Shown here piece by piece: positions 26,463-39,790 of a stretch of DNA of 40,036 nucleotides. The position numbers were made by a program, and so were the translations under genes. The notes under the pieces are model-generated. The model was not told the origin of the DNA, ran no database searches, and saw nothing but the letters and a program-made list of their open reading frames with translations. Numbering within the stretch: position 1 is the stretch's first letter; each line of letters starts with the position of its first letter. The stretch covers positions 1-40,036 of the forward strand of contig CAYFXC010000006.1 of assembly GCA_964347045.1 (NCBI GenBank), given 5' to 3'. Origin of the DNA: an uncultured archaeon (lineage in GTDB: Archaea; Asgardarchaeota; Hermodarchaeia; Hermodarchaeales; Hermodarchaeaceae).

Positions 26463-28922
26463 GTGAAACTTGGCGAAGCATCAAAACTTAAAGGACAAAC
26501 TGCCACTATTTCACCATCCCTTCACGCTCAAAAAAACGCGCGTAGAACGAAGGATGAATATACATTGACAGAACAAAAACGAGCTCGACTTAAAGCTGAT
26601 AAGCTTGACACCGGATTTGGGTCCTTTCGAAATGTCGAAGTCACTATCGGTAGGATCATCGATGATGATTGGGACGAACCCATGGGACCCACTCCCATGC
26701 CTGATGTTACCACTCTTCGTAGTTGGGATCATAAACTTCTAGCTCGGTACCGACCAGCGTATATGCCAGCATGCCAATTGTGTTGTTTGTGTACGTTTGG
26801 GAAATGCGATTTGACAGGCGGAAAGCGGGGAGCTTGTGGACTGGATATTGAAGCGCAGTCAGCACGAATTGTCTTGGCTGCAGCAAATATCGGGTGTGCG
26901 GCTCATCTTGCACATTCCCGACATATGGTTGACCACTTGATTCACGAATTCGGGCCTCGCTATGAACTCGCCCAAGGGGAAGGAGTTGAAATTGAAGCCC
27001 CACTGAGCCGATTAATAACAGGAATTCGACCCCGAACCTTAGAAGATGCATCAGCAGTACTAGATTATTGTGAAACACAATTAACACACACACTCTCTGC
27101 TGTAGCCACAGGCCAAGAAGGCAGTTGGATTGACTTTGAATCCAAGGCCTTCCATACAGGCATGATCGACCTTCTCGGAATGGAAATAGCCGATCTCGCC
27201 CAGATATCCACCCTTGGATTTCCAAAAGCAGACCCAGAACCCCCTCTGGTTGAAGCAGGAATCGCTTCAATGGACCCCAAAAAAGCCATGATTTTAGCTA
27301 TCGGCCATAACGTTGTACCAGCAACTTATATTATGGACTACGCGACCGAAGCAGGTCTTTTTGATAAAATCGACGTAGCAGGAATCTGTTGTACCGCATG
27401 GGATATCACTCGATATGAAGCAAAAGCAAAAATCGTGGGTCCCATCTCCTGGCAATTACGATTTGTCCGAGCTGGATTTGCGGATGTCGTTGTCGTTGAC
27501 GAACAATGTATCCGCGCAGATATCCTCGAACATGCCAAGAAAGTCAATTCCCCAGTAATTGCCACATGCGATAAGTCAGCCATGGGATTACCCGATCGCA
27601 CTGACGACGACGTGGATGACATCGTAAAAGACCTTGTTTCCGGAAAAACCCCAGGAGTCTATCTCCGAGATTATGAAAAAATCGGTGAAGTCGTCGTCAA
27701 AACCGCAATCAAGATGCATCCAAAACGAAAGAAAAAAGGTTCCCTACCGAGCCAAGCCAAAATAAAAGAACTTGCCACAGCTTGTCGGCAGTGTTTTGAC
27801 TGTGTACGAGCTTGTCCAAATGACCAACCAGTTATGGATGCTGTACTTGCCGCTCAGGAAGGAAATTTCGGACCACTTGCGGATGTATATGATGAATGTA
27901 TCGGGTGTGCCAGGTGTGAATCGGCTTGCCCTAATGATTATGAGCTCCATAGTTGGATGGTAACAGCCGCAAAAGATCGATGGACCCAAGATTCCTTCAT
28001 GGTCCGTTCAGGTCGCGGTGCTATTCAAGATACTGAAATTCGGAATGTAGGACAACCCATTGTATTTGGCGAAATCCCTGGGGTGATTGCTCATGTAGGC
28101 TGTGCCAATTATCCCGATGGTGGCCGCGCCATCCACGATCATGCAGAAGAATTTGCAAGACGACGATTCATTGTAGTCTTCTCAGGGTGCGCTGCAATGA
28201 CCGTAGGTGGCATCAAGGATGAAGAAGGCAAATCCATCTATGAGAGACGACCTGGTACTTTTGATGCTGGGAGCGTCATCAATGTGGGTTCCTGCGTTGC
28301 AAACTCTCACATTGCAGGAGCAGCGATAAAGATTGCAAGCATATTTGCAAAACGAAATCTCCGAGGTAATTACGAAGAAATCGCAGACTACATTCACAAT
28401 CGAGTCGGCGCAGTTGGAATTTCGTGGGGTGCAATGTCACAGAAAGCTGCATCAATCGCAGCCGGATTCTGGCGACTAGGTGTCCCTGTAATAGTCGGGC
28501 CCCATGGAACCAAGTATCGACGTATGCTACTAGGTCGCGCAGATAGAGCGGAGGACTGGATGGTGTGGGATGCCCGAACAGGTGATCGCGTACAAGTTGC
28601 TCCTGGACCAGAACACCTCTTCTACGCCGTTGAAAACTTTGAGGAGTTGATGGTTCTAACTGCAAAACTTACCATCCGACCTAACGATACCAGCAAAGGG
28701 CGAGCCATTAAGCTCAGCCACTACATCGATTTACATGAGACTTACAAAGGCTTCTTCCCCGAGGATGTCCATAGCTACATTCGACGTGAATTTGATATTC
28801 CAATTACCCTCAAGGATAAGATCAAAGCTCAGATGAAAGAAAACAAGTGGAAAGAAAAGCCCATACCCGACCCAACATACTTACGACGAATGGTCTATGG
28901 CGGCAATGGAGGTGGCAATTAA
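26463..28922 (+). CDS. cdhA: CO dehydrogenase/acetyl-CoA synthase complex alpha subunit
   Basis: CCLCTFGKCDL...GACG, GHN, GICCTA, DEQC, two ferredoxin motifs, VGCANYP, GSCVAN, WGAMSQKA. True start may be TTG near 26565. Confidence 0.98.
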   Translation: MKLGEASKLKGQTATISPSLHAQKNARRTKDEYTLTEQKRARLKADKLDTGFGSFRNVEVTIGRIIDDDWDEPMGPTPMPDVTTLRSWDHKLLARYRPAYMPACQLCCLCTFGKCDLTGGKRGACGLDIEAQSARIVLAAANIGCAAHLAHSRHMVDHLIHEFGPRYELAQGEGVEIEAPLSRLITGIRPRTLEDASAVLDYCETQLTHTLSAVATGQEGSWIDFESKAFHTGMIDLLGMEIADLAQISTLGFPKADPEPPLVEAGIASMDPKKAMILAIGHNVVPATYIMDYATEAGLFDKIDVAGICCTAWDITRYEAKAKIVGPISWQLRFVRAGFADVVVVDEQCIRADILEHAKKVNSPVIATCDKSAMGLPDRTDDDVDDIVKDLVSGKTPGVYLRDYEKIGEVVVKTAIKMHPKRKKKGSLPSQAKIKELATACRQCFDCVRACPNDQPVMDAVLAAQEGNFGPLADVYDECIGCARCESACPNDYELHSWMVTAAKDRWTQDSFMVRSGRGAIQDTEIRNVGQPIVFGEIPGVIAHVGCANYPDGGRAIHDHAEEFARRRFIVVFSGCAAMTVGGIKDEEGKSIYERRPGTFDAGSVINVGSCVANSHIAGAAIKIASIFAKRNLRGNYEEIADYIHNRVGAVGISWGAMSQKAASIAAGFWRLGVPVIVGPHGTKYRRMLLGRADRAEDWMVWDARTGDRVQVAPGPEHLFYAVENFEELMVLTAKLTIRPNDTSKGRAIKLSHYIDLHETYKGFFPEDVHSYIRREFDIPITLKDKIKAQMKENKWKEKPIPDPTYLRRMVYGGNGGGN

Positions 28923-36469: not shown

Positions 36470-37294
36470 CTAAACTTGGCATTTTGGACAAATGTAGCTG
36501 GTTGTACTTCCTACTCTAAGTTCTTCAATTCGCGTGTTACAATTGGGACAAGCTTGGTTAGTTTTGTAGGCAATATGAGGCCATCCGGGTTGTTTACCCC
36601 ATTGACCACGATTTCCCCAAACATCTTGCTCTCCAGGTCCCGGTCCATAGCGTATTCCCTCTCGGAGTACATGCTGAATTGCATTATGTAATTTGTCAAT
36701 ATCTTTAGCTTGAAGTGTATTTGATTTTCGATTCGGATGGAGCCGGGCATGCCAGAGAATATCTTGGACATACACATTACCAATACCAGCAATGAACCTT
36801 TGATCTAATAAGTAGCTCTTGATACGGCCTCGTTTTTCGTGTAACATAGATGTCAGTTTTTCTTTTGTAAATTCATCGCTTAGAGGTTCAATACCTAGTG
36901 TACCAATCTGTGGGTGCTTAACAAGTTCACCTGATTTCAGAAGGTGAATATGACCAAACCACCAAAAGTGAACCCAGAGTTGACTTCCATCATCGAATGA
37001 GAATACGGCTCGTTCCCGTTTCAAATCAGGAACTTCAGGTGGCCAATGGATGCGTAATTCACCACCCATCCCCAAATTAAAAGCAAGAATAGAACCATTA
37101 TCAAGATCACTGAGTACCCACTTTCCCCGTTGACGAAACTTTGTAAAGATTCTCCCTTTCATATTCGTTCTAAATACTGAAAGCGTCCGATTCAGAACCT
37201 TAGGTTGATAAATCATTGCGTTGAAGAGCTTCGTTCCGCTAAGTGCTTGGTTCAGACTTTCAGCTAAAATAACTATATCAGGGAGTTCAGGCAT
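36470..37294 (-). CDS. mutM: Fpg/Nei family DNA glycosylase/AP lyase
   Basis: N-terminal PELP, RGK, LGM, H2TH 'LLDQRFIAGIGNVY', C-terminal zinc finger CPNC...CPKCQ. Confidence 0.93.
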   Translation of the reverse strand: MPELPDIVILAESLNQALSGTKLFNAMIYQPKVLNRTLSVFRTNMKGRIFTKFRQRGKWVLSDLDNGSILAFNLGMGGELRIHWPPEVPDLKRERAVFSFDDGSQLWVHFWWFGHIHLLKSGELVKHPQIGTLGIEPLSDEFTKEKLTSMLHEKRGRIKSYLLDQRFIAGIGNVYVQDILWHARLHPNRKSNTLQAKDIDKLHNAIQHVLREGIRYGPGPGEQDVWGNRGQWGKQPGWPHIAYKTNQACPNCNTRIEELRVGSTTSYICPKCQV

Positions 37295-37364
37295 GCATTA
37301 CACCTCTGAAACCTAGGCTAACATAATACATTTTCTTTGTGATAAGAAATGTTCAGGAAAAATT

Positions 37365-37465
37365 GGGTGGCGGGGGGGCGGAGACTAGAAGAATCGCCAA
37401 CAGCTGGGTGGCATGTGATCCCGCCAATGCGACCATCCTTCCAAACTTCTCAAGCGTCTCCGCCC
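37365..37465 (-). ncRNA. Putative novel structured RNA (~100 nt)
   Basis: 10-bp perfect closing stem GGGCGGAGAC/GTCTCCGCCC (37376-85, 37456-65); inner 9-bp helix; about 59% GC across 37376-37465 in an AT-rich intergenic region; TATA-like TTTATT about 27 nt upstream and TTTTT downstream on the minus strand. Confidence 0.55.
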
Positions 37466-37555
37466 TTAAGAGAAGCGGACTGAGTATCAGAATAAAGGTC
37501 TTTAATGGTTCCCATTACGGCATCCAATAAGAGAACTAGTTAGACCAAATAATAA

Positions 37556-38314
37556 CTAGAATGTTTGAAGAAAGGAATTAACTGCCTTATTGAATTTAGT
37601 CGGTTGCTCAAGCATCACCAGATGCCCAGCGCCCGCTATTATTTTCAATTGAGCGTGGCGGATATTGTCCGCCAGATATTGTGCCCATTTGACTGGAGTT
37701 AACCGATCTTCTTCACCAACTACCACAAGAGTGGGGACTTTGATTTCATGAATCCGATCACGCACATCAAAATCATTACATGCCACAAAATCTGCATGTC
37801 CGATAGCTGGCTTACATCGAAGACATTCAGCTTTTGCCAGCTCAACCAACTTCGGATTAACGCCGGATGCAAAGCCGAGTTGACCAATCGTTAAATCTAT
37901 TACTGCCTCAAACTGGGTTTCTAAACCTTCAAGTATAGCAGGTAAAACCCCAAGTTTTGCCCCTGTTCCAACCAAAATTAGACCCCTCAGGAGACGGGGA
38001 TAATCTAATGCCAATTGAATGGCAATCGCGCCCCCTAACGAATGACCAACTGGAACTACGGTTCTAAGCCCTAGTAGCTCAATAAATTTGGCGATAACAT
38101 TAGCGAACCGAGAAACAGAAATCTCATCATCTAATGATTCTGACTCACCGTGTCCAGGTAAATCCAATAACACAATTTGGACCTGATTAGCTAGAATTCG
38201 CTGTTGATCCCATAGTCTGTGACGACATAAGGATCCATGAAGCATAATCAAAGGAACTCCATCACCCCGTATTTGATAATATAATTGCTTTCCATCGATT
38301 TTGAGTTTGGACAT
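37556..38314 (-). CDS. Alpha/beta-fold hydrolase
   Basis: LHG oxyanion motif, DLPGHG, GHSLGG nucleophile, 'GEED' Asp, 'GAGH' His. Confidence 0.93.
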   Translation of the reverse strand: MSKLKIDGKQLYYQIRGDGVPLIMLHGSLCRHRLWDQQRILANQVQIVLLDLPGHGESESLDDEISVSRFANVIAKFIELLGLRTVVPVGHSLGGAIAIQLALDYPRLLRGLILVGTGAKLGVLPAILEGLETQFEAVIDLTIGQLGFASGVNPKLVELAKAECLRCKPAIGHADFVACNDFDVRDRIHEIKVPTLVVVGEEDRLTPVKWAQYLADNIRHAQLKIIAGAGHLVMLEQPTKFNKAVNSFLQTF

Positions 38315-38422: not shown

Positions 38423-39790
38423 ATGGCAAACCAAGGAGCAGGAAACAGGATTAGGCTTAATCGACTCATCTCATGGACCCTGTTATTGGTAGCCATTGGC
38501 ACAATTCTTACCGGGTATCTATCAGCCCGTGGCATCATACCCCACCTCATCATTGCTCCATTCCATTTGGTAATAGAAGTCTTGTTCGTCGCACTCCTAA
38601 TAGGACACCTGATCTTGTCTTTGCTGACCAAGTTCTATTGGAAAAACACATTTCACAAGATTCGAATTGGAACTGCAACATCGTTGAATTGGTTAAAACT
38701 GATTCAACGCCTAACCGGCTTTATCATTGTAGGGTTTGCCTTTTTGGTTATCATCTCCGGTCTTGATTGGTATGCTCTCGGGTTAGGTTCCGTATATCCC
38801 TTTACACAACATTTGAACATGGATATCTTCTTGACAAGTCTTCTAATCATTCATGTGGGGATTGGAGCAAAATTTGCATTAGCTCGCCGCCAAATCCGAG
38901 GTTCAAGAATAAATGCCGCGTTGTTACTGGCAATTCTTCTACCCACCATATTGATTGGTGTGTGGGATTCAGGAGGAAAATACTATCTAATGATTCAGTT
39001 GGCTGGAACACAACCAACCCTCGAATCCAATCTTGTATGGGTCGATGACCAACAGTTTTCATTTAATCCAACTGAGGTTAACACCCTGCGTCCTGACCTT
39101 TTCAAACCCGGCTATTTCTCCGCCTTCGATGTCTTAGTACACCTTGCGGATCAGGGCTTTGTAAACCTTGAATATCATTTCAATGAATCTATGAACACCT
39201 ATCTCATTGACACAATCAATGGAGAAGTGAATTGGTGGTACCGCATCTGGTATGATGGAGGTTGGCCAGAAGAAAATGTCTTCCGAATGGATCATTACCC
39301 TTGGAAAGACGGAACCTGGTTGAAATTCGTTCATATCCAGCCCAACCGCCTAGCAGCCATCTACCAGGAATTTCGTGCCGAAGTCGCTCGCTTTAATGAG
39401 ACTAATGGCAGCATAATCATTCCTCAAGTGGAGATACTTGGCAATCTTGTCCAGAAAATCTTCTATAATGTGACCGTGACGCCTCATAATCTGCGAAATG
39501 ACGTATTTCAAGACGGAGTAATTACTGCAATAGATATCATCATGTCCCTCGGGGATCAAGATCTCATCACATACGACCTCCAATGGTATGAAAGTATCGG
39601 CACCGCAGGGATAGTGAAAAGCTATTGGATTGATGGCATCAACCAAGATTTAGCCTATGGCAGATGCGGCTTTGTTTATGAAACCGGGTCCTTCCATTTT
39701 CGAAATAATGGTAACCATATTCACCTGCCCTCCGATACACGTATCCTCAATTCACCAGAATATGGAATCTGGATTTGGATTTGCATATAA
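38423..39790 (+). CDS. Membrane protein: putative di-heme cytochrome b-like domain plus duplicated C-terminal soluble domain
   Basis: 5 TM segments; two helices each carry a His pair 14 residues apart; C-terminal repeat 'TLRPDLFKPGYFSAFDVL...YLIDTING' / 'NLRNDVFQDGVITAIDII...YWIDGINQ'. Confidence 0.8.
   Translation: MANQGAGNRIRLNRLISWTLLLVAIGTILTGYLSARGIIPHLIIAPFHLVIEVLFVALLIGHLILSLLTKFYWKNTFHKIRIGTATSLNWLKLIQRLTGFIIVGFAFLVIISGLDWYALGLGSVYPFTQHLNMDIFLTSLLIIHVGIGAKFALARRQIRGSRINAALLLAILLPTILIGVWDSGGKYYLMIQLAGTQPTLESNLVWVDDQQFSFNPTEVNTLRPDLFKPGYFSAFDVLVHLADQGFVNLEYHFNESMNTYLIDTINGEVNWWYRIWYDGGWPEENVFRMDHYPWKDGTWLKFVHIQPNRLAAIYQEFRAEVARFNETNGSIIIPQVEILGNLVQKIFYNVTVTPHNLRNDVFQDGVITAIDIIMSLGDQDLITYDLQWYESIGTAGIVKSYWIDGINQDLAYGRCGFVYETGSFHFRNNGNHIHLPSDTRILNSPEYGIWIWICI

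Follow-up and report, generated by a model that had tools for sequence, protein, structure and literature searches.

A conserved, genus-restricted, probable structured small RNA with a predicted pseudoknot, located between a hydrolase gene and fpg in Hermodarchaeaceae

Genomic setting of the locus

The window analysed here is a 40,036-nucleotide stretch of DNA (contig CAYFXC010000006.1, positions 1 to 40,036, assembly GCA_964347045.1) from an uncultured archaeon of the family Hermodarchaeaceae. Two protein-coding genes on the minus strand frame the interval of interest: upstream, a gene for an alpha/beta hydrolase of 252 aa (37556-38314; Pfam Abhydrolase_6/1), and downstream, fpg/nei, coding for 274 aa (36470-37294; Pfam H2TH, Fapy_DNA_glyco and zf-FPG_IleRS). 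Between them, and co-oriented with both, lies a conserved unit of about 112 nt (37365-37476, minus strand), which runs from a predicted start at the G of GCUUCUC to a C-rich 3' tail, as delimited in alignments of 11-12 orthologues; the covariance model R1 matches the same span, 37365-37476, with 128.8 bits. The locus forms a GC-rich island with nested inverted repeats amid AT-rich intergenic DNA. An earlier note, made from the letters of the window, had proposed a structured RNA here: the minus-strand sequence that it quoted is found letter for letter at 37465-37358, and its estimate that fpg follows about 70 nt downstream agrees with the measured start of fpg, 64 nt past the T-run at the end of that sequence.

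The gene order hydrolase, RNA, fpg, thioesterase, PNP is preserved in all loci recovered in the genus (20-odd), with the RNA always directly upstream of fpg and on the same strand; since this synteny is identical in every recovered locus, it cannot by itself decide between a stand-alone gene and an fpg leader. The element is present once in the 2.58-Mb assembly and once in each related genome. A MITE or other dispersed repeat, which had been named beforehand as a possible source of such a structure, is rejected on this count, as many copies with target-site duplications would be required. Furthermore, neither an integrase, nor Orc1/Cdc6, nor repeat copies are found near the RNA locus.

Two observations concern the neighbouring genes themselves. 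Divergent from the hydrolase gene, a 455-aa ORF without Pfam match (38423-39790, plus strand) is 61-68% identical in three genomes of the genus. In the fpg gene of relative G007 (L011:1208-1318), a run of N representing a scaffold gap spans codons ~24-28 and mimics a frameshift in tblastn; the apparent frameshift, being the N run, is no evidence for an RNA that has outlived fpg in that genome.

Boundaries and conservation

The conserved unit begins 11 nt upstream of the G at which the earlier note had placed the 5' end, at an invariant GCUUCUC (37476-37470), and that boundary has to be given up, since the conserved block extends over these 11 nt in relatives. At the other end, the block closes in the C-rich tail at about 37365, and past either end no alignment is possible. 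Within these limits, 70 of the 112 positions are invariant (alignments of 11-12 orthologues), and the variable positions cluster in the apical loop and in two linkers, L1 of 4-7 nt and L2 of 3-4 nt, so that the helices are almost invariant while linkers and apical loop drift.

Across the genus, identity to the window's copy is 82-97% for the RNA proper, and the expectation that homologues could be collected from related genomes and would prove conserved is thereby borne out. For the same genomes, the corresponding figures are 95-98% for 5S rRNA and 91-96% for SRP RNA, while the flanking proteins show 52-76% amino-acid identity within the genus and the intergenic flanks are unalignable. Indels of 1, 2 and 3 nt in relatives disrupt every reading frame on either strand; a micropeptide encoded in the AUG-led frame from RNA position 41 is accordingly rejected, as this frame is broken by 1- and 2-nt indels.

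Distribution

The RNA was found by BLAST and by R1 in 10 of the 14 genomes of the same genus, as well as on four metagenome contigs. In the four genus genomes that lack it, either the whole locus is absent or a contig break falls inside the hydrolase gene, and the RNA is present at each of the ten sister-genome loci that are assembled (10/10). Beyond the genus, R1 has no match in the class (19 genomes), a single junk match (E = 0.13) among 151 sampled genomes of the phylum and, with filters off, no match at the hydrolase-fpg loci of the sister genus. An exact-pattern scan of the GTDB species representatives returned Hermodarchaeota or Promethearchaeota MAGs only, plus four bacterial chance matches; 19 extra two-block pattern matches in 400 Asgard genomes all lie within long ORFs and are dismissed as chance matches, and viral contigs hold no match to the RNA. 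As far as detectable in these searches, the RNA appears to be restricted to the genus that includes Candidatus Hermodarchaeum yapensis.

In the sister genus, a gene of ~680 aa, solute-binding-like, stands between hydrolase and fpg at the position of the RNA, and no RNA is present. The product of this gene (L086, L087, L088, L031) has a signal or transmembrane segment at its N-terminus, then a body of solute-binding-like type and, at its C-terminus, a zinc-ribbon-like CxxC...CxxC; in G015 and G016, its leader begins with a (G)CUUCUCU-like sequence adjoining AGAAGU. Derivation of the RNA as a remnant of this gene is rejected, as local alignment scores equal the shuffled mean, and comparison with the sister-genus gene junctions revealed no similarity to the RNA.

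Predicted transcription signals

The rules for archaeal promoters and terminators can be applied to this archaeal genome. A putative promoter occupies 37500-37513 on the minus strand, consisting of a BRE-like GGGAACC (37513-37507) followed by a TATA-like ATTAAAG (37506-37500), whose centre lies about 27 nt before the first nucleotide of the conserved unit, G1. The TATA-like box is aligned in all relatives, as ATAAAC, TATAAAC, TTATAGAG and similar, at about 25-27 nt from GCUUCUC and with GGGAACC-like sequence before it, and TATA boxes of the same type and at the same distance precede the 5S, SRP RNA and tRNA genes of this genome. On the strength of the conserved box and of the matching boxes at stable-RNA genes, initiation is predicted at G 37476, and the RNA would be transcribed from its own BRE/TATA-type promoter. 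The suggestion of an own promoter-like signal thus stands, in that a box is conserved in all relatives, but not its assignment to the motif TTTATT about 27 nt upstream: this motif does sit 26-31 nt before the G originally taken as the first, yet it is specific to this genome, and the conserved box lies ~10 nt further upstream.

Termination is probably signalled by a T5 run (37358-37362, minus strand) of the archaeal type, oligo-T tracts being sufficient for termination by the archaeal polymerase. In relatives, T3-T6 runs occur within ~5-30 nt of the tail, at variable distance. The terminator-like signal proposed earlier is therefore retained as an archaeal-type oligo-T run, but not as an intrinsic terminator of the bacterial kind: a simple consensus scan detected no hairpin-plus-T element, and the position of the T-run varies among relatives.

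Fold and predicted pseudoknot

The minus strand folds with an MFE of -44.1 kcal/mol and z = -2.07, compared with z = -0.56 for the plus strand (dinucleotide shuffles), and these z-scores, together with the G-U pairs, favour a minus-strand RNA. Two helices of the earlier note recur in the MFE fold, namely the 10-bp closing stem, as 37465-37456 with 37385-37376, and the 9-bp stem UGGAAGGAU/AUUCUUCUA, whose two G-U pairs had been read, in keeping with the present result, as favouring the minus strand. The closing stem, P2, is formed by a 5' strand GGGCGGAGAC (RNA 12-21; 37456-37465) and a 3' strand GUCUCCGCCC (RNA 92-101; 37376-37385), minus strand in both cases, which pair both in the MFE fold and in the alignment; three of its pairs vary, all of them changing only to G-U. 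Within P2, a long irregular hairpin (RNA 34-91; 37386-37443, minus strand) comprises P3 (UGGAAGGAU/AUUCUUCUA), P4 (GUCG/UGGC) and an apical helix (UUGG-CG-GG/CC-AC-CCAG), with 93.7% of cells paired. The 2x2 internal loop of the apical helix is invariant, and the apical loop varies in length from 8 to 11 nt. In G006, P3 is degraded in its lower half; in G007, a register-shifted P3 provides a weak rescue, at -3.7 kcal/mol versus -2.3 and -2.8 kcal/mol for hybrid strands.

The 5' end of the conserved unit adds a further predicted helix, P1, in which the strand GCUUCUC (RNA 1-7; 37470-37476, minus strand), invariant in 12/12 sequences, pairs at all seven positions with GAGAAGU (RNA 26-32; 37445-37451, minus strand), of which GAGAAG is invariant. 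The closing pair 1-32 is G-U in 7 and G-C in 4 of the 12 distinct sequences, and the energy of the duplex ranges from -7.8 to -9.2 kcal/mol. Because P1 encloses the 5' strand of P2, the two helices would form an H-type pseudoknot across the 10-bp stem; conservation of the P1 5' strand could in part reflect promoter function, as this strand sits at the predicted start site. The 12-nt 5' bulge, previously interpreted as a hairpin, has at its core the 3' strand of P1 and is better assigned to the predicted pseudoknot, and the T-loop-like GCU-UGAGA-AGU mini-hairpin is lost in relatives, where the linker reads GCGC, GCAC, CCA, AAC or GCC.

An additional pairing involves the C-rich 3' tail (37365-37375, minus strand), whose CCCGCCA (37374-37368) is the complement of one strand of the apical helix, UGGCGGG (37426-37420). 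The resulting duplex, of 7-9 bp and -14 to -17 kcal/mol, can form in 8/12 sequences and is absent from G007, G006, G012 and SMTZ1, with at least two independent losses; it may represent an optional second pseudoknot or a competing pairing. Moreover, GAGAAG has an alternative partner, CUUCU in the P3 3' strand, and this pairing constitutes the MFE fold in G006. Taken together, this alternative and the optional tail pairing suggest that the fold may be bistable, with the RNA adopting two conformations.

Across the 12 distinct sequences, the whole structure places standard pairs in 96.5% of cells, versus 39-61% when the partners are slid by 1-3 columns, and P1 and P2 reach 100%. The eight variable pairs all change via wobble only, and double-sided compensatory changes in register are seen at none of the pairs. 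The structure consequently rests on conservation, wobble-compatible changes and energy, and is well supported by these, though not proven by covariation.

Comparison with known RNA families

An Rfam scan of the whole window at gathering scores gave zero matches, and a permissive scan of 37200-37650 (E up to 10) gave three unrelated ones, all with E above 5; ARAGORN was empty in the window and, run on the whole genome with introns allowed, placed no tRNA at the locus. Rfam and ARAGORN, two of the checks recommended at the outset, are thus both without a match at the locus, and the view that the element does not fit tRNA, 5S, SRP or C/D patterns is upheld, no matching models or defining features having been found.

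In a tRNA, a 7-bp acceptor stem, a D-arm and a T-arm with its GTTCRAATC-like loop would make up a cloverleaf. This identity, including the intron-interrupted Asgard type, is rejected, in view of the missing T-loop-like motif and of a permissive Rfam scan without tRNA match; a heavily interrupted tRNA also fails, as the alternative D-arm and anticodon-like helices, judged by eye, break down in G011 and G014. The 5S rRNA, SRP RNA and RNase P RNA are set aside on the grounds that no model matches at the locus and that all three genes are located on contig C1, the RNase P RNA and SRP RNA of this genome being of archaeal type. A C/D box sRNA is discounted, the C (RUGAUGA) and D (CUGA) boxes, which would have to build a K-turn and flank guide segments, being absent from the sequence and Rfam giving no C/D match. 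For an H/ACA sRNA, the expected features are a lower stem, a two-sided pseudouridylation pocket, an upper stem that carries a K-turn or K-loop and, past the lower stem on its 3' side, an ACA box; here, the internal loop has 12-15 nt in its 5' strand and 0 nt opposite them, which makes it one-sided, it contains no tandem G-A pairs, and the stem is followed by C-rich nucleotides with no conserved ANA. Finally, known riboswitch classes (Rfam 15) are rejected, no aptamer matching at E up to 10 in 37200-37650.

As a separate observation on the genome, ARAGORN with introns allowed reports 36 tRNAs, more than half of them with predicted introns, and none for Gln, His or Lys, a tally consistent with heavily interrupted Asgard tRNA genes in an 89%-complete MAG.

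Partial likenesses to known systems can nevertheless be drawn. With the genes for 5S rRNA, SRP RNA and RNase P RNA, the element shares the character of a GC-rich island in an AT-rich genome and a TATA-like box ~25-30 nt upstream, and with 5S rRNA and SRP RNA also near-invariance across the genus; it differs from the three in showing no significant similarity to them and in being confined to one genus. With H-type pseudoknot aptamers such as preQ1-II and SAM-II, it has in common a 5' strand that pairs past the P2 5' strand, a second helix that closes around a long inserted hairpin (the third loop) and a size of ~100 nt. In contrast to these aptamers, it has no sequence or covariance-model similarity to them, its linkers vary while its helices are invariant, and it is archaeal, with a predicted promoter and terminator of its own. 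In terms of discovery route and lack of explanation, a parallel is offered by orphan structured sRNAs of hyperthermophilic archaea that were recognised as GC-rich islands (Hgc/SscA-type candidates), many of which were later explained by H/ACA or C/D features; the present RNA belongs to a different lineage and has no such features.

Interpretation and alternative explanations

The attributes of a stand-alone archaeal small RNA gene, that is, a BRE/TATA promoter, an oligo-T terminator, non-coding character and conservation beyond that of the flanks, are all found at this locus, transcription itself being predicted. The best explanation, to which we assign a probability of about 0.5, is that the locus is a gene in its own right, encoding a stable, structured small RNA of ~112 nt, with the predicted ends, the pseudoknot and a function in binding through its shape. 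Transcription would start at the G of GCUUCUC, directed by a BRE/TATA-type archaeal promoter, and would stop at oligo-T tracts just past the C-rich tail; the RNA would be a rod of P2 (10 bp), P3 (9 bp), P4 and the apical helix, with its 5' end tucked back onto the P2-P3 segment (P1, 7 bp) to give the H-type pseudoknot, and its 3' tail might also pair with one apical-helix strand in two thirds of the sequences. That the element is an independent RNA gene is, taken by itself, quite probable. As regards its mode of action, the near-invariance of the helices, set against the drift of linkers and apical loop, suggests that the RNA acts via its folded shape, possibly as a platform for a protein or a small ligand, rather than by long antisense pairing; the specifically protein-binding or scaffold role is a tentative guess that we consider possible rather than probable.

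The earlier note had wavered between a stand-alone small RNA and a cis-regulatory leader of fpg, and the first of these options is now supported by bounded conservation, the TATA-like box, strand bias and broken frames, while the second is weakened. As a cis-acting 5' leader, the RNA would be a riboswitch or protein-binding attenuator whose aptamer sets the choice between a stop at the T-tracts and read-through into fpg, a ligand linked to base damage being the obvious guess; this is an unlikely reading, although the RNA stands immediately upstream of fpg and on the same strand at every one of the 20-odd loci recovered, has an aptamer-like size, a pseudoknot topology and downstream T-tracts, and contains two segments, GAGAAG and UGGCGGG, with two alternative partners each. 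It is weakened by the sequence between the RNA and fpg, where a T-rich element, TTTCTTAT (37342-37349, minus strand), is aligned in most genus members and followed ~20 nt further on by a semi-conserved AGAATAC. It is likely the TATA box of fpg's own promoter and could double as a back-up terminator of the RNA; a similar box, TTCTTATA, precedes fpg in G017 of the sister genus, where the RNA is absent. The spacing between RNA and fpg varies from ~77 to 190 nt, and no conserved expression platform is seen in it. The T-rich box of fpg, the variable spacing and the RNA-less fpg of the sister genus all favour independence of the RNA. Typical riboswitches, moreover, keep their junctions conserved while their stems covary, and the present pattern of varying junction linkers and invariant helices is the reverse; the RNA is also found at a single locus per genome, in one genus, and has no Rfam riboswitch match. 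Still bolder, and very unlikely, is the proposal of a new archaeal sensing or catalytic RNA class, a double-pseudoknotted aptamer or ribozyme in which GAGAAG would pair with either the 5' end or the P3 strand, and UGGCGGG with either CCACCCA or the 3' tail, these two competitions forming a switch that would answer to a base-damage-linked ligand or protein and control read-through into fpg. A self-cleaving HDV-like ribozyme, whose nested pseudoknot would generate G1 by cleavage instead of initiation, would account for the 7-bp P1 closing with G1-U or G1-C, for the strand order P1-5', P2-5', P1-3', long hairpin, P2-3' and for conservation that begins exactly at G1; it is nonetheless highly improbable, as the gap of just 3-4 variable nt from P2-5' to P1-3' accommodates neither P3/L3 nor P1.1, as 0 nt separate the hairpin from P2-3' and thus no J4/2 catalytic cytosine is available, as no HDV-type Rfam family matches even at E up to 10, and as the TATA-like box already places initiation at G1.

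A trans-acting base-pairing sRNA, using a short seed such as the C-rich tail or the apical loop, would suit the stand-alone gene, the tail and the CACAUG-containing apical loop, and the best genomic complement to the apical region pairs at 20/22 aligned positions, with a 14-nt perfect Watson-Crick run and two G-U pairs, upstream of a secreted-protein ORF on contig C20, the 14-nt core being present also in G013. This reading is distinctly unlikely: in a genome-wide ungapped scan that allowed G-U pairs and took 40 dinucleotide-shuffled RNAs as the null, no outstanding antisense target emerged, the best non-self score of 45 lying at shuffle expectation (44.1 +/- 3.7) and being reached by 14 of the 40 shuffles. 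In addition, the complement is degraded in G007 though the sRNA loop is unchanged there, the length of the apical loop varies, 4/12 sequences have lost the tail, and the invariant parts are helices, not loops. An even smaller share of probability, such that the idea is barely credible, falls to a DNA-level site (origin element or recombination site) or non-functional conserved remnant with no RNA product. The GC-rich island with its nested inverted repeats in AT-rich intergenic surroundings would agree with it, but the fold is specific to one strand because of its four or more G-U pairs, a promoter-like box stands at the right distance, integrase, Orc1/Cdc6 and repeat copies are absent nearby, the sister-genus gene junctions show no similarity, and conservation is near that of 5S and SRP RNA. 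The probability is almost negligible for a U3 box A-like pre-rRNA chaperone, in which UUGGCGGGAUCA would pair with the 5' end of 16S rRNA (UGAUCCUGCCAG); the complementarity to 16S rRNA positions ~9-20 of genus member G006 amounts to 12 bp, including 2 G-U pairs, and UUGGCGGGAUCA also resembles the archaeal 16S '915' strand, the normal partner of the 16S 5' end in the central pseudoknot. Several equally long rRNA complementarities in the same scan put this match at chance level; besides, its AUCA portion belongs to the variable apical loop and reads differently in G011, G014, G012 and SMTZ1, its UUGGCGGG part is paired within the RNA's own apical helix, and C/D boxes and K-turn are absent.

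Two of the sequences consulted in these comparisons merit a description of their own. The region L004:1450-1600 (G000 contig C20, ~28160-28310, plus strand), located ahead of an ORF of 474 aa for a secreted or membrane protein that has no Pfam match, is conserved in G013 and G007, has a long-range pairing AGCGG...CCGCU and holds GGGUGGCAUGUGAU, a perfect 14-nt complement of the apical region of the RNA that is at chance level and degraded in G007. The 16S rRNA gene of G006 (C71:619-4212; L041) extends over ~3.6 kb for a 1478-position model, a span which implies large insertions or introns; in the assembly to which the window belongs, 16S is represented by a 3' fragment alone (1492R site at C26:27160-27175), and 23S is missing.

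Significance

On balance, the element is judged to be a genuine and new small RNA gene, structured and confined to one genus. For Asgard archaea, almost nothing is known, to our knowledge, of non-coding RNAs other than the universal ones, and the RNA described here constitutes a new family with clear limits and under strong constraint, which can easily be synthesised and probed. Being nearly as constant as 5S and SRP RNA within the genus yet absent from the sister genus, it appears to be a recent and evidently useful invention. Should it be only a stable RNA bound by protein, the catalogue would gain a modest entry; if, on the other hand, the pseudoknot and the competing pairings form a switch beside a DNA-repair gene, it would rank among the very few archaeal regulatory RNA structures known.
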